DNA of 61,634 nt, the filler included, from Diploschistes diacapsis (Eukaryota): NCBI GenBank assembly GCA_023645945.1. It is 9 parts of 9 records of this genome, joined end to end, with 100 filler letters (N's around TTAATTAATTAA, not from the genome) between each part and the next. Parts side by side here need not be neighbours in the genome. Positions count along the whole stretch, not along the records: positions 48,683 to 52,936 come from JALAIB010001738.1; 8 more parts are not named here. One strand, written 5' to 3'. A program made the translations under genes and the position numbers. Of this stretch, positions 4,322 to 57,385 are shown in pieces (position 1 is the first letter of the stretch; every line of letters begins with the position of its first letter). Below the pieces are notes generated by a model. The model did not search any database. It was given only the letters and a program-made list of their open reading frames with translations, and was not told where the DNA came from.

Positions 4322-7300
4322 ATGTGGCAACGAGTTCTAGGTCTCTCAGACAAGACAAACGACTCCTCGGCATCTTCTCGCCGCAAAGAGTCGCAGCGCA
4401 AAGGTTCTGTATCTGCGGTGTCTTCCTCTACGAACCGGCAGCAATCACGGGGTGATGACCGTGATCGCGGGATCAATCCTACCTCTACTAGCTACTCATC
4501 CTCCTCAAGAAGCCCTTATCCAGGTGGCGCGGCTCCGTCCGTGGCCTCAAATTATGCAATCGCACAGGCAAATCAACTCGACGAAAGAGTAACTCAGCCT
4601 GATATTGTGAGAAGTTCCAGCCTTGCAAATAATATGCCTCGCGCACGCTCCGAACGCGATGAGCGAGATAGAGATGTTGAGAAAGACAAGAAAAGTAGGA
4701 GGAGGCGAGAGCGCTCCTCGAGTCGCGATCGGAAAGAGCACAGACGAGACAGATCGCGCAGTGATGAAAGGAAAGGCAAAGGTGATAAACGGGAAAGGAA
4801 GCTCAAGAGGCGGAGTACCGATCCTGCGATTCTTGAATCCAGTGAAACCACAAGGATAGGTGAAATGGTCAGGTTCAACTCTCAAATCGGATCGGCCGGC
4901 TTCTCTCAATTCCCGGGTCAATTTGATACCGGAATGCCCACCATGCCTGGTAGCCAACGTCCGCCGCACAATATGTCAGACCATGTCCCTGATATGTTTC
5001 CTGGGCAGTTTCCGTCTGGTACCGCCGCTCCCTATCGTCCGCCATTGGCAATAAATGAAGGAGGACCCGGGCTAGCGGCGGACTACTATGGTGATACCGG
5101 TCAATCTGTCGCAGATCAGCCCGGTGTGCGTACAGGAACTCCGAATCTCATTATGGGTTCTGAGCCTCATCTAATGATGGCTTCCTCTGTCGCTGCTCCA
5201 CCGCCAGAACCAAGCTCCATGGGGCAGCAAGGCTCTGCTGCCGCATTTTTTGAGAGCGATGCCACCTTTCAGACTCCTAATTCCTCCCCAAAACCTCTGC
5301 CACAGGGCGCTTCGAGGCCACAAGGCGCCCCCTACATCGCCCAAGAGGCACTCTCACCAGGATTGCCTCCCCAGCCATTGACTGGTCAATCAATGTCTGT
5401 ATCGCCTATTGCATCTACGAACCATATTCCTGCAATTGATGCTGCAGCCGCTGGCGCTGGCGCTGCCACAGCTTACGCGACCGGCCATCACTCGTTCTCT
5501 GGACAAGTCTCAAACTTCAATTCCTACCAAGGGTTCACTCCTCAAGAGCTCCCGGGATCGGATTCACAGTTGCCACCATCTAGCAGTACCCGCCCGCCCA
5601 GACCAGGTAAGCACACCTCTTCTAACGTTCCTTTAGCAGCTGCGGCGGCGGGCGCTGCTAGTCTAGCGGCAGCAGCCTATCAACATCATCAGTCTCATCA
5701 AAACTCCTATCAACATCAATCGCATCAAGATTCGTATCAACATCATCAGCCTCATCAAAACTCATTTCACCACCAGAATAACCAAGGCTCATACAATTAC
5801 TCGAATGGTGGCTCAAGTTTTCAAACTGGTATGGTGCACAAACATCGTCATGAAGGGCCATTTGCTCGATTGGTCGATTTCTTTCGTGATCCTGATGGCG
5901 TTGCTCAGTTCGAAGAGTATACCGAGTACATCGGAGTTTGTAGAGATTGCTTTGAGCCTGGCTCTTCGCCCCGTGATGCGCCACGAAAGCATCACTACCG
6001 TCGGAAAGCGTCGCGCGAAAAGCTGCGAATGAGTGCTCGAGTAGACAAGGAGAATCGATACTACGTGTCTTCAGATGGTGATGGTCGGCGCAGCAATAAG
6101 AAATCCTGGCTGGCCACTGCCGCTGCTGGGGTTGGCCTTGCTCAGGCTGGCAAGAGTTATTTTGGGAATCCAAATGACTTTCAGAACACACACAGTGTCA
6201 AATCTGGCCGAGTTAACGAATCACCAAACTCGCCGCCTCGACGACATTCTCCATCAAGCCACCGCAGAGTCGCTACCAAGGACGATCTGAGGGGACATAA
6301 AGAGGATCGCAGAGTTGATTACGGTATCACTGTAGACGATGAGATGGTTAAGATGGTATCTCGAAAGTCCACTGGCAGTGGTGCTGTCACAAGCTATAGT
6401 GATCGTAAATATCACAGGGCCCACCGACGATCCAGATCTCGCTCTCAAGAACATAGCCACAAACTTCGCGACGCTGCTGTGGGAGCTGCCGCTGGTGCTG
6501 CTATTACGTCGGCTGTCTCACGCAAGCGAACGCCTTCACCTGAAGAAAACGTTATTCGGGTCCGCGACGGGTCGCACCACGAAAGTACGGAGCGAAAGTC
6601 ACGCCGATCTCGTATATCGCCGGAGCGCTCAAGTGGAGTCTTGGGCGGCTTCTTCTCCTCTCCACGTGATCAAAGCCACGGCAGCCGTGGGAGAAAACAG
6701 AACAAGGGATTCTTTTGGTTGGGTAATGGATCCTCTTCTTCCTCTGATGCAGATTTAGCGTTCGGTGAATCGTATCGTCGCAATAGCTCCAAGAGAAAAT
6801 CATCTCCGAAAATTAAAAGCGATGCTGAGGCGAGTGCTGCCCTGATCGGCCTGGGTACGGCAGCTGCAGCGCTTGCAGCCCATGGGAGTCGGCCAAAGTC
6901 CAAAAGAAATGGAGGTCCCAATGTCGTTGCGGTAAAAGACACAAAGGGCAAGCATCGGCAGCAGATAGATTCGAAGCATGATCGCAAACACAAGCAATCT
7001 AGGTCCGATAGTCTGAAAGAAGATGACCTCTGGGAATCTGCTTCTGAAGATGAAGGCTACTCTAGCGTAGAGTCTGCATTGGCGTTTGGCATGGCCCGAC
7101 ATGAAAGTCGAGAATCACTTAGAGAGTCTGGCACAGACAAGTGGGACTGGCGTTGGGGCAACAAGAAGCCTCGACGACTGTCCCGAGAAGGCCATGAAAG
7201 TTACATCCCATCCGTCGCTACTGCAGCAGCGGCGGGCATAGCAGGCGCTGCAGCAGAAGCTCCATTGGAGTCTCGTGAGCGCTATCCAGGCTCAGCGATG

Positions 7301-10300
7301 CAAAGTACCGGTAGCATTCATTCAATGCAACACGTCTATCCAATGCCAACATCAGACCCTGCAAGTTACGAGGCAGTAACACATGACCCGGTTACCGGTC
7401 AGCCAACAAGGAACGCGAGGCCTGCTCCAGTCCCAATTCAACAGCCACGCCCCATAGTTCCCGTTCCAGCCACGGTCTACACTCAGGCGCCACCAGAACG
7501 AACCTTTTCGGGGCCTGCTGTTCTCGCCGAAGAGCCCGTCTCCAAGCGATATGACGGAGTCTCTAAATATAGCAGTTCGACACCAGGTGCTTTCCCTACA
7601 AGAGACGACACCCCTGATGAATCAAGAAATCGGCGTTTCGACCTATCTCAACCAGCTATTGTTGATGTTGAACAGGAACCTGCACGGTCTCGAGACGAGG
7701 GCTCTTCTGTCCGATTTGGCCTCACAGAGGAGCAAGAGGAGAGGCACAGGAAGGAAGAACGCCGAGAACGTCGGAGGTCTGAGAAGGCGCGATCCGAAGC
7801 TGAGCGTCGCGAATACGAAGAACCAGTTATTATGGATCGTGAGAAACCGCAGTCCAAACGATGCGGTTTTGAATACGAGCAAGAACCCGAGCGCCGCGTC
7901 GTTGAAGAGAGCGTGGTGGAAAGCCAAACCTCGAAGGACAAACGTGTTGCAGATTCACAGAAAGGGAAGCAGTCTGACCGGTACGCAGAAATTGAGGCTG
8001 AGTTGCAGCGGTTAATTCAAGAAGAGCCCCCAGCTTCCAAACCTAGAAAACAGTCCGTTGACCATGTCATTGAGTATGCATTGGCTGGTGCGGCTGTTGG
8101 TGTTACCGCGGCTGCTCTAGCCCGAGGTTCTGAAAGCTCGGAAGAGAAACGACAGAGACGAAGAGAAGAGCGTCGCCGCAATGAAGAAGAGTGGGACGGT
8201 CTTGTGGATGAAAGTCGAGACCAGATCAAAAAATCGAAATCCTGGGATAGCTTTGCCGGCGTTGTAGGCTCAGCAATCGTTAGCGAAAAGAACCGAGGCC
8301 GTAGGAAAGATGAAGAGTTAGCCGAGGCGATAGAGCCTTCCTATCGAAAAGGGAAAGAGTACGATACGCGTGCTGCAGACGACCAAGCAACTCTAGAGAG
8401 GAAGTTGGCTAGACAAGCAACAGCAAAGGTTCGCATAGCTAGGCCACCAAGTCCAGCTCCTCATGAAAGCTATGCGTCATATTTCGCCCCTGAAGGGATT
8501 CTTTCAAAACCGGCTGGAGAGAAACAGAAATCTGTAGGCCCTAGTGCTGATGCCGACACTACTGCTTTTAACAAGAGAGTGGATCCACCAAAGTTCCGTG
8601 GCCGCTACATTGAGCCAGAAATTCCTATTATGCCCCATGAAGATTTTGCCCCTATAGAATCGCATCAGTATCTGCCATGGATAGTTCCCCCTTTGAATTT
8701 GATACATCCTACGCCTTCGGCAAGCCGCGCGGGCAGCAGAGCTAGCTCGGTTGTGCCTTCGCCTATCATTGCACCTCGTGATCGTCCGGCAGAAGAGGAA
8801 GAGGAGCAACCAGAAACGTTTAGGAAAGTCTCGTTCGGTAACAACCAAACTCACGAATATGAGGTTATCTTTCCCGAAGAACACCACGACGAGCACGTCT
8901 CTTCCGATAACAAGGCTGATAAAGGCAAATCGGAAGGTGAACAACGTTCGCCAACTTCTCCAAAAACTGCTGTGCATGCGGCCGACGTCAAGTCACCGGT
9001 TGAAGAGATATCGGGAAGCTCAATGCCAGGCGTCTTTGATGACGATCCAGAGTTTGCTGCTACACTTGCTGCTGGAGTAGAAGCGGCAGGATTTAACCCA
9101 GACATAGTGATAGATGATCCGATGTATCGTAGGAGAGACTCGCCTCCTGGCTCGCAAGAAAGAAAAGGCTTCTACAGGCAGCCATTCTACCAGACTGTTT
9201 CTGACATTGCCATGGACTCACCTAGAAGTCATGGTGCTCCTCCCCAAAGGGTTTGGGTTGAGCAAGGTGAGCTTCCAGAGACACCGAAGGACAACAATAT
9301 TTATAGTCGTAACGAAGAGAAGAAGACGGATGATGATCCGGATATCAATTGCAAAGAGCGAAGAAAGTGCGAGAAGGCTATCAAGAGACGAACTACCGGG
9401 AATGATATCATTGAAGCTGAGTCTCCGTCACGAACGGTACCAGAGGCTAAGGAAATTGCCGATCCAGATGACGCTGAGTTGGAAATTATTGAAGACGCAG
9501 CTCAAGAACTTGCAGATGATTTTCCACCTGCTAAATCCAAAAAGTCAAAGAAGAAGAAGTCCAAACGGAACAGTATTACGGAGAAGAGCCTCGAAGCGAC
9601 CATTCAAGATCACCAAGCTTCGGAACGCGCAAACAAAGGTTCAGTATCTTACGGCGAGCCAGTTGGGATCCAATTTCCAGGCGACGATGGTGAGCCTCTC
9701 GCTCCGTTAGGCGTGACCGAAAATACAGGAACTGCTCAGCCCGAAGTTGAGGAAGAAATTTACGAGTCCCCAAATGAGTACGCTGCATCTGCCGTTAGTG
9801 CGCCCCTTCATGATGAAGGCGAGGAGAGGAGAAAACACAAGAGGAAGTTGAAGCGCCGTAGCACAGGGTTCGAGGACACTGCATCTGTAATTTCGTCCCC
9901 TGCCAAATTTGACGACACTAAGGAACCGCCAAGTAAGTCCAAGAAAAAGGGCAGTCTATGGGGGCTATTTGGCAAGTCTTCTGAAGACGTTGCTCTGAAA
10001 CGAGATACCAAGGACCAACTTCCTGAAGCTACGGAAGAGTATGTGGAGTCGAAGAAAAAAGGCAGAAAAAAGAACAGGAAGTCTCAAGACGCTGATGATT
10101 GGTATATCGGTACCGTCGGAGTGGGAGCTGATGTTTTGAAGACAGAAGAAGATGGAGAGGGGAAAAAATCTGCGAGATTTGTAGAAGACAGCCGTCGCAG
10201 CCGTCGCAGCCGTCGCAGCCGTCGTGATAGCAAAGAGAACGGGGACACAGGTAGGCAATCCCGAGACCTACCTGACAAGGTACTACTCCTCGCCTTTGCT

Positions 10301-26751: not shown

Positions 26752-26851
26752 NNNNNNNNNNNNNNNNNNNNNNNNNNNNNNNNNNNNNNNNNNNNTTAAT
26801 TAATTAANNNNNNNNNNNNNNNNNNNNNNNNNNNNNNNNNNNNNNNNNNNN
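26752..26851. other. Artificial contig linker (44N-TTAATTAATTAA-44N)
   Basis: Six-frame stop cassette flanked by Ns; identical at all 8 junctions. Confidence 0.99.
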
Positions 26852-31123: not shown

Positions 31124-31223
31124 NNNNNNNNNNNNNNNNNNNNNNNNNNNNNNNNNNNNNNNNNNNNTTAATTAATTAANNNNNNNNNNNNNNNNNNNNN
31201 NNNNNNNNNNNNNNNNNNNNNNN
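31124..31223. other. Artificial contig linker
   Basis: 44N-TTAATTAATTAA-44N. Confidence 0.99.
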
Positions 31224-35493: not shown

Positions 35494-35593
35494 NNNNNNN
35501 NNNNNNNNNNNNNNNNNNNNNNNNNNNNNNNNNNNNNTTAATTAATTAANNNNNNNNNNNNNNNNNNNNNNNNNNNNNNNNNNNNNNNNNNNN
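35494..35593. other. Artificial contig linker
   Basis: 44N-TTAATTAATTAA-44N. Confidence 0.99.
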
Positions 35594-39858: not shown

Positions 39859-39958
39859 NNNNNNNNNNNNNNNNNNNNNNNNNNNNNNNNNNNNNNNNNN
39901 NNTTAATTAATTAANNNNNNNNNNNNNNNNNNNNNNNNNNNNNNNNNNNNNNNNNNNN
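39859..39958. other. Artificial contig linker
   Basis: 44N-TTAATTAATTAA-44N. Confidence 0.99.
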
Positions 39959-44220: not shown

Positions 44221-44320
44221 NNNNNNNNNNNNNNNNNNNNNNNNNNNNNNNNNNNNNNNNNNNNTTAATTAATTAANNNNNNNNNNNNNNNNNNNNNNNN
44301 NNNNNNNNNNNNNNNNNNNN
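44221..44320. other. Artificial contig linker
   Basis: 44N-TTAATTAATTAA-44N. Confidence 0.99.
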
Positions 44321-48582: not shown

Positions 48583-48682
48583 NNNNNNNNNNNNNNNNNN
48601 NNNNNNNNNNNNNNNNNNNNNNNNNNTTAATTAATTAANNNNNNNNNNNNNNNNNNNNNNNNNNNNNNNNNNNNNNNNNNNN
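48583..48682. other. Artificial contig linker
   Basis: 44N-TTAATTAATTAA-44N. Confidence 0.99.
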
Positions 48683-51600
48683 ATATTATTTATATTATCG
48701 CCGTATTCAATTTTTTTAATTCTTTTAATTTAAACCGGAAATTTTTTTAATCGTTTAACGTTACGTGGTATTCGTTTATTATTATTTTTTTTAATCGTTC
48801 TTATTTTCGTAATTAATTTAAAAATCCGGAAAATCCGTCCGTCAACGCTTTTTTCGTCGTTATTAATATTATTTACATCTCGTCCGGTAATTTCTTTTTT
48901 TTCTACGTTTTTATCCTAATTCTTAACCTTTTATACCACCTCGTTATATTCTATTTTAACTCGATCAACGGTATTATTATTATCGTTACCCCGTTTCCGC
49001 TATAAAACGCCGGTAATATAAACGTTAAATTCTTTTTTTTTTTTGTCGGTATCATTTTTAATATTTTCGATTTTTTTTTTATTATTGTTTCTATTATTTG
49101 TTTTTATAATTTCTTAAATTTCGCCTTTTCGTTTATTATTTTCTTTAATTGTTCTTTTATATCTATCTTTTTTAATCTTTTCAACTTACGTTTCTTACTC
49201 TTTCTATCTTTTTTTTCTTATCTTATTATTTTTCTTTTACTTTCTTTTTAAATCTTAAACCTTAAAAACCGATATTAATCCTCGCTCGCCTGTCGATATT
49301 TCTTCCTCGTCGATGTTATCGTCCCGTTCTACTCCCGTATCTCGCGCGCGTATATCATTCTTATCACGTGCGATCCGTGCTTCGCCTATATATCCTCGAT
49401 CTCGTCCTCGTTCATTTCTTCTTCGTCTTCTTCGTCGTATTAAAATCCTTTTTTTAAATATTTTCGATTAATAACGATCGTTATGTTTCTTTACGGCTAT
49501 ATTATTAATCTTTTTATTCTTATCTTTTCCTCGCCCAACCGTTTCGTTAATACTCGATTTATCTTTATAATATCTTATTTCTTTTTATATTTTTTTTCCG
49601 CCGGTTATATCGACCACGATCCCGTATATCTTTCTTTCCTTTCTATCGCTTCCTAACCTTTTATTACCGACAATATCAATTATAAATAATAAATTATTAA
49701 TTCTTTCACCTTTCTCGATAAATATCGATAAATAATTTTAACGTTTTCGCTCAACGTGTATCTTTTATAATATCGCGTTACGAACATTACCGTCCCGTCT
49801 TCAACGAATATATTCCTTCCTTCCCCCTTTCCAGAATTACTATACCTAACGTTTAAAATTTTAAAGCTTCTTGCCGACTAATCGTCCGTTAAATACATTA
49901 ATATTAATTCTAATTCTCGAAACTCGGCCACTTATTTCTTCTATTCTTCTATCTTTTTTTGATTTCTGACTTCTTTACCTTTATTTAACGTTTTTTTATT
50001 AATTAATCTTTTCGCTAACCACGTCTTACTTTCCACCGGCCACGAATTACGTTCGTCTTTAACGAAACTATATCTCATTTCTTTTCGCGTGGCATCGTCT
50101 TTTAATTTAATTCACGAGATCTTCGATAATTCTTTTTCTTTTTCTTTCCTTTCGTTCATTCTTATCAATCCTTTTATTAAAATATCTCTACATTCCGTTA
50201 TTAATCCGTAAATCGTACCTCGTAATTCGTCTATACCGAACTTTTTATTCTTATACCGGATCTAATCCTTAATTTAATCCACATAACCTTATATCGTCGT
50301 ATTATAATAAATCTTTAACCCGTACGCCCGTCGATTTAACATCTATTATATCGACGTTCCATTTCTTCTAATCATAAATCCGTTTATTATTTTTTTCATT
50401 TTATTTAATATGTTTAATTTATTTTTTTTATTTTCGTTATTTTCCTCGTTAGACTATATCGCTAATTAAATCATTATAAAACGCATTACTTTAATTACTC
50501 GTAATATAATAGGCGGGTAATTCTCCGATATTCGTCATTTATCTTTCGTTACGCCCAATATAGCCATATTATATACTAATAATAATTCATATTTATAACT
50601 TTTATATCTCCGCGACATCAACGCTATACAAAATCTTAAACATACGGCTTTTAATTTTCTCAATCAGATCGATCTTCTTTCGTTTTCTTTTTCTTCTTTT
50701 CTATTCTCTTTTCTTTTATTTTCTATTTCTTCTTCTTCTTCTTCTTCTTCCTCTTCCTCTTCATTATCTTCTTCATCAATTTCTTTTATTTTCTTCTCGA
50801 TCCTAATCCTGTTTCTAATCCCATTTTCTTCTTTTTTTTTCTTTCGACTCTATTTTCGATACATCATCCACGTTTAATTTATTATTTTTATAAACATACT
50901 TTTCTCCTCTACGTCGAATTTAATTTTCGTTTTTTCGTTCTCCTTCCGCCCTTACGTGCGTACGAAAAACGCTATTATCTATTTCCACGATCGCGCGTAA
51001 TCGACGATACTCGCCCGGTCTATATACGTCTATAACGACTAATACTTTATTTACGCCGCCTCCGTCCTGACCGCTTCCATATGAATAAAATATCCGACCT
51101 TCTCTACCGTCGTCTATTAACAATATTCGATCATTTCTTCCATCGCTTTTTATATTACTACCACTAATGATTCCCTTTTTTTATCCGGATCGATTATCGA
51201 ATCTAATAAATCCTTTCGATCTAATCCTTCTAAATATACGGGCCATCCTATCGTTTTTAACCACGAAATAAATTCTATACCTTCTTTTCTTTTTTATATC
51301 CTTTTTCGTCGATTCTTTTCTATACCGTCCTAACTTTCTTTTAACAATCGTAATTTTCGGGTTATTACGTCTTCCGAAGATATTATATCTTTTTCGTTCC
51401 TCGTCTTTATTTTAAAATAATTACTTCCATATCTTTAAATAAAAAACCGTTAATATATAATCGATTTTTATATAATATATTCTTATTCTTATCTTTTTTT
51501 TAATTTATTATTTCGTTTACCTTTAATACTAAGATACTGTCGAGTTCAATAACGTTTCATGTTATTCTCGGCAACGTATACGTACGTATATTCTATACCG

Positions 51601-51860
51601 CGGATACATTTTATTCCTTAATAAATCGTTAATTCAAGAATCGTTCGTTCCGTTTAATGAATCTCGTTGAATTCGTTAGAATTCTAATGGATATCGATAC
51701 GCATTTATACAACTTTTTATACTTCTACGGCTTCTTAACGTTCGATACGATAAACGTCGCCTTTTAAATAACTAACAACGTGACTAAACCATACGACATA
51801 ATTATATTTCTTATAAACCATAACCCGCCAATCGGATAAATAATAGAAATACTCGTTTAT
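48683..51860 (-). pseudogene. RIP-inactivated telomere-linked-helicase-type ORF: Cys/His Zn-binding N-terminus (DUF3505-like), tyrosine-recombinase-like domain, RecQ DEAH helicase; 3' end cut by contig end
   Basis: All checked motifs share one ancestral frame from 51860 (ATA<ATG) over >1050 codons. De-RIP reading: 'VMVCKKCNYAVWPSHV..HL...H', 'PWLKTIGWP.YLEGLDR', 'NYPPI..VIK..RFM', 'PMQWML.RRAYGLKIHYNTT', 'GQPAR..EILNVR.SN...RNIFVEDG..FVTRYHKGY...KIIHRYL', 'WRNIAIAISRKYL', 'QAGHGSHV...IYAR', Walker A 'PTGGGKS' (49049-49029), 'IVVDECH' (48776-48765). Confidence 0.85.
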
Positions 51861-52109
51861 AACGATAATATAATCGATTTAATTCAATCTTCGTGATATT
51901 AAAAATTATATTAATGGATTAATAATAGAATTTATAAAAATCGTAATCCGTGATTAAAACACGTACGCGATCACGGATTAATTATATCTTATACGCGTTC
52001 GTGTTTAGTAACGTAATAGATATATTGAAGTCTAAAGATCTTAACTTAGGAAATATCCTACTATACAGACTTTTATTTTCTACGATGTGCGCTAAGCCTT
52101 ACTACCCTC

Positions 52110-52936
52110 TGTTACGATCCAAGTACCAGACTTGGCACGTCCCAGCTTTATATATAGGTCAGTCACGGGACCAGGGGTCACGTGATGCGCTCACTGCTCG
52201 CGCTTATTCTCGTGAGCGGCGAGCAAGCTTTCGTTACCGCTTGATAGTCGCGTTTATTTTTATAAACGGCGAGCCTTGAAAGTACCGTTCGTTGGGCTTA
52301 CGATAAACGGCAAGCGAATTAATTATATATAAACACGACTTTATTTTTATAAAAGAAAACGTGTTTATTTTTATAAATATCTTAAATTATTATTCGGGAT
52401 CAATCTATATTCGTTATTTTTATTATTTTAAAACCTTTTTTTCAGAAATAGTCTAAGATCTATGACTGTTTTATCTTTTTTTCCTGCTACACTTTTTTTC
52501 TAATAGAGATCAAACCCATCTTGATCCTACTCGTGTATATCTTGTATAGATAGAGATTATAACACTTAAACATCTTCAAGAATGAATATTATTGATAATA
52601 TAACTAAACGATCGCCACCGATGGCTAAATCCGTAGCACCTCGCGCACCTAAGATAGTAACGTTACTAGATGAAACCGATATCTTTATGGCGGACATTGC
52701 GGAAGTTAAAGGCGACGATCTCGGAAGTAACGATAAATCTAACGAAGATAAATCGTATAAAGAATTTATTATAAAAGTTATAAAGTTAATAACGTTCTAC
52801 GGAAACCGAAAGAAACTAGAATATTAGATATTTTAATTTTCAATATATTTCTACTGAAACCCGTATATTATAAACGATTAAAAGAAACGAATAATTTTCG
52901 TCGTAGGATTTATACGTAACCGCGTATTGATATAGA
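52110..52936 (+). mobile_element. 5' end of a Ty3/Gypsy LTR retrotransposon (LTR from TGTTACG at 52110 to ~52302; RIP-mutated gag from 52582)
   Basis: TGTTAC start with TATA-like tatatatagg and a CACGTG site. The gag relic 'IKVIKLITFYGNRKKLEY*IF*FSIYFY*' matches fungal gypsy 'KxxKPxxFxGDRxKLExWxxQxxxYF'. The LTR right boundary is approximate. Confidence 0.65.
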
Positions 52937-53036
52937 NNNNNNNNNNNNNNNNNNNNNNNNNNNNNNNNNNNNNNNNNNNNTTAATTAATTAANNNNNNNN
53001 NNNNNNNNNNNNNNNNNNNNNNNNNNNNNNNNNNNN
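52937..53036. other. Artificial contig linker
   Basis: 44N-TTAATTAATTAA-44N. Confidence 0.99.
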
Positions 53037-57285: not shown

Positions 57286-57385
57286 NNNNNNNNNNNNNNN
57301 NNNNNNNNNNNNNNNNNNNNNNNNNNNNNTTAATTAATTAANNNNNNNNNNNNNNNNNNNNNNNNNNNNNNNNNNNNNNNNNNNN
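57286..57385. other. Artificial contig linker
   Basis: 44N-TTAATTAATTAA-44N. Confidence 0.99.

Follow-up and report, generated by a model that had tools for sequence, protein, structure and literature searches.

The DNA analysed here is a stretch of 61,634 nucleotides from Diploschistes diacapsis (assembly GCA_023645945.1), hereafter the window, and our subject is the relic of a telomere-linked helicase (TLH) gene that it contains, in which a 'TLH domain' precedes a RecQ-type helicase. TLH genes are the terminal genes of many fungal chromosomes and have been known since about 1998-2002. The relic occupies positions 48683-51875 on the minus strand (5' limit approximate) of an unplaced contig of 4254 bp and 31% G+C (48683-52936), and its extent, the N-terminal ~1040 codons, follows from read-through translation, library match and alignment. 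A single minus-strand frame with codon starts at 51800-3k is readable from about 51875 to 48683 and contains 57 stops in 1039 codons (read-through translation P0002). This frame is co-linear with intact proteins of 1100-1650 aa and shows no frameshift in the alignment to homologues, and residues 12-1008 of P0004 map by tblastn to window positions 51842-48708. The contig stops at 48683, inside the RecQ helicase part, where a linker adjoins. The window therefore lacks the 400-600 C-terminal aa of the helicase, and the open reading frame (ORF) described in an earlier note on this DNA is to be corrected to an incomplete one.

A full HMMER scan with the relic translation against 1.84 billion cluster representatives returned 1864 matches at E≤1e-3, of which 852 passed E≤1e-10 and 206 passed E≤1e-30; the top match had an E of 2.8e-154 and 34% identity. 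The translation is altered by repeat-induced point mutation (RIP); with Pfam it gave three weak chance matches below the cut-offs, and a word-indexed protein search with it against longer proteins gave no match. In a Pfam run on 14 of the best homologues, OrsD (PF12013) was present at the N-terminus of 12, while DEAD was detected in 12 and Helicase_C in 11, with ~750 residues between OrsD and DEAD that carry no Pfam family. The alignment of the relic spans the first zinc motif to the DExH box. At its 5' end, the N-terminal zinc module (OrsD, or two C2H2-like motifs) lies at 51530-51842 on the minus strand, its approximate limits being taken from Pfam OrsD in homologues and from the alignment. 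The window here reads 'VYKKYNYVVW..H' where homologues read 'VCKxCxYxVW..H', most Cys codons now being Tyr. The earlier note placed this Cys/His module just before the recombinase-like domain, which is wrong, as the module is N-terminal and ~500 residues upstream of the catalytic domain. An acidic poly-Glu low-complexity insert, which varies among homologues, is aligned at 50667-50810 on the same strand. The N-terminal lobe of the RecQ-type helicase, truncated, occupies 48684-49150 on the minus strand and is recognised by motif 0, by a Walker A remnant 'PTKKKKN', whose Lys has the alignment coordinates 49034-49032, and by a DExH remnant 'NEYH' at ~48773, where the window has 'IINEYHV' in place of 'IVIDECHV'.

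The accessible text of a preprint (bioRxiv 10.1101/2024.02.27.582403, citing Rehmeyer et al. 2009) gives three hallmarks of the TLH family: C2H2 motifs, RecQ motifs and, ahead of the helicase, a 'TLH domain' of ~250 residues. The window has the C2H2/OrsD motifs, remnants of the RecQ motifs and, upstream of the helicase, a 'TLH domain' over which the alignment covers GGQPAR...YHKGY...IHRYLP...QAGH...YAR. The gene thus belongs to the published TLH family, and both its type and its mode of decay are known; the claim of an 'undescribed' element was mistaken, and the recombinase-like segment on which it was based is the 'TLH domain' of that family. The family, found in fungi and a choanoflagellate, includes M. 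oryzae TLH1, the S. pombe tlh genes, U. maydis UTASa and the F. oxysporum TLHs. Its members have the same architecture as the window gene, are multicopy, stand last before the telomere and are RIP-mutated in sexual species. The window gene is a member, set apart in that this copy is dead and truncated and in that we here assign its TLH domain to a predicted tyrosine recombinase/topoisomerase IB fold. In its accessible text, the preprint describes the TLH protein's function as undetermined and that of the TLH domain as unknown, and the word 'recombinase' does not occur there. The accessible part of a second preprint describes proteins with OrsD/DUF3505, DEAD and Helicase_C in Fusarium subtelomeres and, citing Coleman et al. 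2009, RIP-type changes in telomere-associated helicases of Nectria haematococca.

The contig of the relic has a TpA/ApT ratio of 1.03 and a (CpA+TpG)/(ApC+GpT) ratio of 0.44. Six of the other eight window segments lie at 0.71-0.82 and 1.22-1.34 for these two indices, and one lies at 0.94 and 1.02. At the codon level we used the 338 columns at which at least four of five intact homologues agree. The relic deviates at 163 of these columns, and C>T/G>A changes alone account for 110 of the deviations and reverse transitions for 4. Stops at conserved columns can be explained by C>T/G>A in 21 of 26 cases. The indices and the 110 versus 4 directional changes bear out the RIP claim of the earlier note. 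The region is a TLH gene relic killed by RIP, and the window copy is dead and does nothing now. Two homologues in the library, P0131 and P0133, are rich in Lys, Ile, Met and Asn and have lost conserved Gly, Pro and Arg, as if predicted from RIP-mutated copies. Window segment 26852-31123 is also RIP-like (G+C 0.32, TpA/ApT 1.11, (CpA+TpG)/(ApC+GpT) 0.33). Six-frame read-through of this segment revealed no Pfam family, and one of its plus-strand frames has a stretch that we take, by eye only, to recall reverse-transcriptase motifs of the non-LTR (non-long terminal repeat) kind.

Five catalytic-type codons are all intact in the segment before the RecQ motifs, each on the minus strand and each at exactly the coordinates that the earlier note had given. 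These are an Arg I codon, AGA, at 49869-49871 in 'SAR' (GGQPAR in the family); a candidate catalytic Lys codon, AAA, at 49764-49766 in 'RYYKRY' (family YHKGY), after strand beta-2; an Arg II codon, AGA, at 49488-49490 in 'XPXRN' (family [WY]R[HQE]); a His III codon, CAC, at 49377-49379 in 'AKHGSHV' (family QAGH); and a codon for the candidate nucleophile Tyr, TAC, at 49350-49352 in 'MIYAR', nine residues past the His. The same His-to-Tyr spacing of nine residues is found in Cre, XerD and lambda Int. Conservation was assessed on the 150 best matches, 123 of which span the domain; 121 were aligned, and P0077 and P0116, whose matches are split into pieces, were omitted. Arg I is present in 120 of the 121 relatives, Lys in 121, Arg II in 120, His III in 119 and Tyr in 119, so that the conservation of R-K-R-H-Y held when it was checked in relatives. 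All five occur together in 116 of the 121 relatives, whose identity to the reference sequence is otherwise just 26-46%, and the five incomplete ones include degraded-looking sequences, e.g. P0131. The motifs of the intact family are GGQPARxxEL, YHKGY, IHRYLP, [WY]R[HQE]IAIAISR and QAGHxxxxAxxxYAR, with an invariant Trp/Tyr before Arg II and a His after it in 69 of the 121. We regard the five as candidate equivalents of the known catalytic residues on the basis of motif order, secondary structure and a weak register in the hhalign comparison described below. The His motif often reads GHGTHVAG, the subtilase catalytic-His string, and several homologues have weak Peptidase_S8 matches (E 0.007-0.2, below cut-off). 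This string, carried by residues 254-290 of the homologue fragment P0043 and their equivalents (window ~49385-49350), is taken as a chance motif.

The 384-residue natural fragment P0043 was modelled with AlphaFold, template-free, from a 74-sequence alignment (predicted local distance difference test score, pLDDT, 86.5; predicted template modelling score, pTM, 0.83), and the model was searched against 48161 representative PDB chains. Ranks 1-31 of this model-based search were all tyrosine recombinases, type IB topoisomerases, protelomerases or domesticated relatives of these. The top match was an archaeal Xer (4a8e_A) with a Z of 11.8 and a root-mean-square deviation of 3.1 over 165 aligned residues. 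Other matches were XerA (Z 10.6), XerH (10.4), Cre (10.4), Brujita Int (9.6), XerD (9.0), IntI (9.0), bacterial topoisomerase IB (8.7), lambda Int (6.8), Flp (6.7), Ndc10 (6.2), TelA (5.0) and QRICH1 (4.8), with unrelated helical proteins at Z 4.6 and below. The candidate Lys sits just past strand 139-146 of this model. A second, longer fragment (P0125; 516 residues, 61 sequences, template-free AlphaFold, pLDDT 86.4) again matched Xer, with a Z of 11.6. Its model superposed over both domains (model residues 17-461) on XerH (242 residues), Cre (227), IntI (247) and TelA (247), and also on Tn1549 Int. Because two-domain recombinases superpose over these residues, the upstream helical bundle is the predicted counterpart of the core-binding domain. 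This bundle (model residues 17-135) falls at 50300-50660 on the minus strand, limits approximate, when P0125 is mapped onto the window through its HMMER match (query 379-851 to P0125 15-494). The predicted catalytic domain with the tyrosine recombinase/type IB topoisomerase fold, which contains the 'TLH domain', covers 49255-50295 on the same strand, with approximate limits from the fold searches. On these models it is very probable that the segment before RecQ has the recombinase/topoisomerase IB fold, and the published 'TLH domain' is the catalytic domain of this predicted fold. A structural match to the tyrosine recombinase fold was thus obtained with two AlphaFold models, and together with the conserved R, K, R, H and Y it upholds the earlier description of the segment as tyrosine-recombinase-like.

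We characterized the genomic setting of relatives in 77 metagenome loci that encode the recombinase-like domain. Arrays of (TTAGGG)n are present in 7 of these loci (5 independent), always downstream on the coding strand, and begin ~1.3-2.1 kb past the gene where the gene end is readable. Of the 21 contigs of at least 12 kb, 14 end downstream of the gene and 4 end upstream of it, and the contig of the TLH relic, too, ends on the 3' side of the gene. The downstream (TTAGGG)n arrays and contig ends confirm the telomere linkage and orientation of the family. Five TLH loci are internal, with at least 10 kb on either side. At locus L189 (9872-10766), telomere repeats are joined straight to a TLH gene truncated in the recombinase-like domain, which resembles chromosome healing at a break. 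Locus L211 has a perfect 1640-bp inverted duplication (1-1640 / 7085-8724) at the contig ends around a TLH gene, possibly a product of the assembly, possibly a palindromic chromosome end.

Homology among copies can be limited to a unit about the size of the gene. In one paralogue group of 84-90% identity it is confined to the gene plus 0.3-0.9 kb. A 39-nt motif (ATTATGTCAGC...ATGAGT[A/C]AGCA) occurs 11 times, always in the orientation of the gene and on both sides of genes, 150-270 nt past them and 0.5-2.2 kb before them, in flanks that are otherwise dissimilar. In a 94%-identical pair, made up of a copy on a tandem-TLH contig and a telomeric copy, homology ends 1 nt after the 39-nt motif. An intact gene of 1580 codons lies between two copies of a perfect 25-nt palindrome, one 99 nt ahead of the ATG and the other 18 nt past the stop; this palindrome is found nowhere else in the 77 loci. 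A 76-nt direct repeat stands on both sides of an intact gene of 1461 codons. Of the 28 non-redundant loci, 7 have a flanking direct repeat that outscores all 84 mismatched-pair controls. These flank patterns fit site-specific recombination between flanking sites, and regulatory elements or tandem-array spacers as well. Short GGGTTAGGGTT tracts follow the 39-nt motif by 12-25 nt in three loci. Locus L158 (1-13005; L160 is near-identical) contains a tandem pair of diverged TLH genes; degenerate telomere-like repeats are scattered through the 2.2-kb spacer between them.

We propose that TLH proteins are enzymes of the recombinase/topoisomerase IB fold, fused to RecQ, that break and rejoin DNA, most likely recombining TLH-bearing chromosome ends and so letting their gene-sized unit spread, a reading to which we give a probability of about 0.6. 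The Tyr would attack DNA and form a 3'-phosphotyrosyl link, which would allow strands to be cut and resealed with no loss of energy; RecQ, as the fused motor, would unwind or branch-migrate the same DNA, and the zinc fingers would target the TLH protein. Most likely, such an enzyme would serve to recombine chromosome ends that bear TLH genes, acting at short sites on either side of the gene. The gene-sized unit could in this way copy itself from one end to another and build tandem arrays, behaving like a subtelomeric cassette that is semi-autonomous. The conserved residues and the predicted fold suggest that the TLH family is probably catalytically active. That the unit is a self-copying cassette rather than a purely host function is a more tentative suggestion, for which we put the odds at somewhat less than even. 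Bolder still, and on balance doubtful, is the suggestion that TLH genes are the recombinase genes of an unrecognised class of eukaryotic mobile DNA, telomere-homing tyrosine recombinase-RecQ cassettes. In such a system a circle would be excised between short direct flanking sites, for which the 25-nt palindrome and the 39-nt motif are candidates, and would be reinserted at other ends. Such a cycle would account for one gene-sized unit standing last on many or all chromosome arms in fungi and a choanoflagellate.

Several results weigh against the proposed recombinase-fold enzyme fused to RecQ, many of them from the level of sequence. Phage_integrase (PF00589) was found in 0 of 14 full-length homologues at E≤0.01 and in 0 of 12 fragments at E≤10. 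A profile of 19 helicase-less homologues gave 13 PDB sequence matches at E≤10, none of them a recombinase; the matches were weak C2H2 ones alone, with a best E of 0.031. When the 74-sequence family profile was compared by hhalign with single Cre or lambda Int sequences, it gave only meaningless short matches. Against a profile of 28 recombinases (26 of 44 matches from five bacterial genomes, plus Cre and lambda Int) it scored 19.0 over 175 columns with a non-significant E of 0.075, and nine reversed or shuffled controls scored 10.3-16.6 over 5-31 columns. This weak alignment puts Arg I, Arg II-His, Gly-His and Tyr in register, and is compatible with recombinase kinship but no proof of it. Cre relatives in viral contigs were also tried as a profile source and were unusable, being near-identical Cre copies alone. 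In Foldseek the top rows for both models were recombinases, yet the best E-values were 0.013 and 0.06 and none was ≤0.001, and the Tyr-bearing segment has a pLDDT below 50 in both models. The check by profile and structure that the earlier note had proposed is thus split: the fold matches of the AlphaFold models stand, whereas the Pfam, PDB and hhalign profiles see no relationship. The TLH domain has probably remained unannotated because sequence-level tests fail. The lack of a significant profile match, the weak Foldseek E-values and the chance subtilase matches of GHGTHVAG could also mean that the recombinase resemblance is an artefact of motifs picked by eye in an AT-rich, low-complexity translation and of an over-read structure prediction. 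We consider this most improbable, as the motifs were checked on intact, non-RIP homologues too, and two template-free models of different reference proteins with overlapping alignments gave the same result. Moreover, 31 consecutive top matches come from one superfamily and lie well above the unrelated rows, and the order of secondary structure and the motif positions agree with the fold.

The active site and the flanks supply further points of this kind. The first His of HxxR is absent, the residues found in the 121 relatives at this position, three before Arg II, including Ser (44), Gln (23), Ala (21), Arg (8) and His (4). R-K-R-H-Y without the first His is the pentad of type IB topoisomerases, and a swivel function is for this reason as compatible with the residues as recombination. 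The missing His, the low-confidence Tyr segment and the presence of Ndc10 (Z 6.2-6.4) and QRICH1 (Z 4.8) among the fold matches could also point to a recombinase fold that is kept but inert and that serves, as in Ndc10 or QRICH1, as a DNA- or protein-binding module positioning the helicase. This is improbable because all five residues are conserved; their retention in 116 of 121 relatives that are otherwise so divergent would be unexpected of an inert scaffold, and the exceptions include obviously degraded sequences such as P0131. As to the flanks, the window contains neither a second TLH copy (blastn, tblastn) nor a telomere repeat, and 21 of the 28 non-redundant loci have no flanking repeat within 800 nt. 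Three of the seven repeat-positive loci share the 39-nt motif and one repeat is of low complexity, and palindromes show no overall enrichment at gene ends (3 near, 18 elsewhere). The 39-nt motif itself contains TGAGTCA, presumably a GCN4/AP-1-type site, and the flanking repeats could instead be promoter or terminator elements or spacers of tandem arrays.

Much of this would suit the main rival reading, a host telomere-maintenance enzyme, a type IB-like swivel or junction resolver coupled to RecQ, whose multiple copies arise by ordinary subtelomeric duplication and gene conversion alone. Such a protein would correspond, within a single chain, to the RecQ-topoisomerase III 'dissolvasome' or to reverse gyrase and would aid recombination-based telomere repair when telomerase fails. 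Besides the topoisomerase-like pentad and the loci that lack a flanking repeat, it would be consistent with the Z of 8.6-10.3 obtained for bacterial and eukaryotic type IB topoisomerases and with the constant position and orientation of the gene beside telomere repeats in relatives. The literature points the same way, as far as its accessible text goes: work on TLH genes stresses telomere stability (bioRxiv 10.1101/2024.02.27.582403), expression of the Y' helicase is many-fold higher without telomerase (second preprint), and a study of telomerase-negative U. maydis survivors mentions RecQ together with TLH. We nevertheless regard a host enzyme of this type as rather unlikely. The best fold matches are Xer, Cre and integron recombinases, superposed over both domains, and paralogues that are internal on contigs of 83-90 kb share gene-sized homology alone. 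In addition, discrete repeats, including a lox/dif-like palindrome, tightly flank the gene in several lineages, and many copies are degenerate, as would be expected of a dispensable repeat.

The proposed recombinase-RecQ enzyme can be compared with several known systems. Xer, Cre and integron recombinases have the same two-domain clamp and catalytic fold as the TLH models (Z 9-11.8) and likewise carry Arg I, a beta-hairpin Lys, Arg II, His III and a Tyr nine residues on. The TLH domain differs from them in having no detectable profile similarity, in the replacement of the first His by Ser, Gln or Ala, in an acidic stretch, variable in length, that is inserted between Arg II and His III, and in being fused to a helicase as well as to zinc fingers. 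The type IB topoisomerases of bacterial, poxviral and nuclear type share the superfamily fold with TLH (Z 7.7-10.3) and have the same R-K-R-H-Y without the recombinase His. They ranked under Xer-type enzymes in both fold searches, however, and are not flanked by recombination sites, for which some TLH genes offer candidates. Cryptons, DIRS/Ngaro elements and Starship captains are, like TLH, eukaryotic multicopy units with a protein of the tyrosine recombinase fold, and some TLH lineages have short flanking direct repeats. They are set apart from TLH by their descriptions, none of which includes a fused RecQ or telomere linkage. DIRS, Ngaro, Crypton and Starships are all named in a 2026 paper on recombinase elements of fungi, and neither 'helicase' nor 'telomer' occurs in the part of it that is accessible. 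The sole Crypton-derived structure among our fold matches was QRICH1, at the Z of 4.8 given above. The Y' element of S. cerevisiae is a helicase-bearing subtelomeric repeat, and the RecQ-topoisomerase III dissolvasome and reverse gyrase are partnerships of a helicase with a topoisomerase. Borrelia ResT is described, in the accessible part of a further paper (PMC5388405), as a recombinase-like telomere enzyme with unwinding activity. These four may be seen as functional analogies to TLH. To our knowledge, none of them joins a recombinase fold and RecQ in one chain at eukaryotic chromosome ends.

What is new here is the recognition of an enzymatic domain and a domain fusion in the known TLH family, and the window copy is an ordinary RIP-mutated relic. 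No link between TLH and tyrosine recombinases was found in the literature searched, and InterPro, Gene3D, SUPERFAMILY or Rehmeyer et al. 2009 might already hold a structural assignment. An abundant fungal domain escapes annotation by Pfam and sequence profiles, and the fold alone reveals it. In the ESM Atlas, the relatives are Ascomycota 'hypothetical protein' clusters that share no Pfam family; a bacterial cluster in which Phage_integrase makes up 17% had a score of 0.75 and is a weak lead. What TLH proteins do and how they spread between chromosome ends becomes a directly testable question once a conserved breaking-rejoining active site fused to a helicase is predicted. If the TLH domain is active, its fusion to a RecQ helicase would be a first for a tyrosine recombinase or topoisomerase IB-like enzyme, and the protein would be a new player in telomerase-independent maintenance of chromosome ends. 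It would possibly also represent a new type of mobile element in eukaryotes and yield new site-specific recombinases. For the window itself the practical message is modest, namely a dead, RIP-mutated repeat relic on an unplaced contig.

From 26752 on, the window is a chain of small contigs of falling length (4272 down to 4249 bp) joined by N44-TTAATTAATTAA-N44 linkers at 26752-26851, 31124-31223, 35494-35593, 39859-39958, 44221-44320, 48583-48682, 52937-53036 and 57286-57385. As separate contigs joined by linkers, adjacent segments are not genomic neighbours. Among the public runs listed as matching contig 48683-52936, a 'lichen metagenome' run contains 0.79 of its sampled words and the other run 0.06; none of the runs listed is an RNA run. 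Upstream of the TLH relic, near the opposite end of the contig, an open ORF of 81 codons lies at 52582-52827 on the plus strand, divergent from the relic. At 51944-51954 / 51970-51980 (no strand assigned), ~70-130 nt upstream of the start of the relic ORF, two arms of 11 nt, TAATCCGTGAT / ATCACGGATTA, form a perfect inverted repeat around a 15-nt spacer. By rough estimate, ~0.03 such repeats would be expected by chance per 1.2-kb stretch. The repeat is placed similarly to the palindrome that flanks an intact relative, and we note it as a lead only. Finally, lambda integrase DNA at 99-100% identity is present on short contigs (L084-L111) labelled Shewanella, Pseudomonas, Oceanobacillus, Kitasatospora and others, and is most likely lambda control DNA that was carried in.

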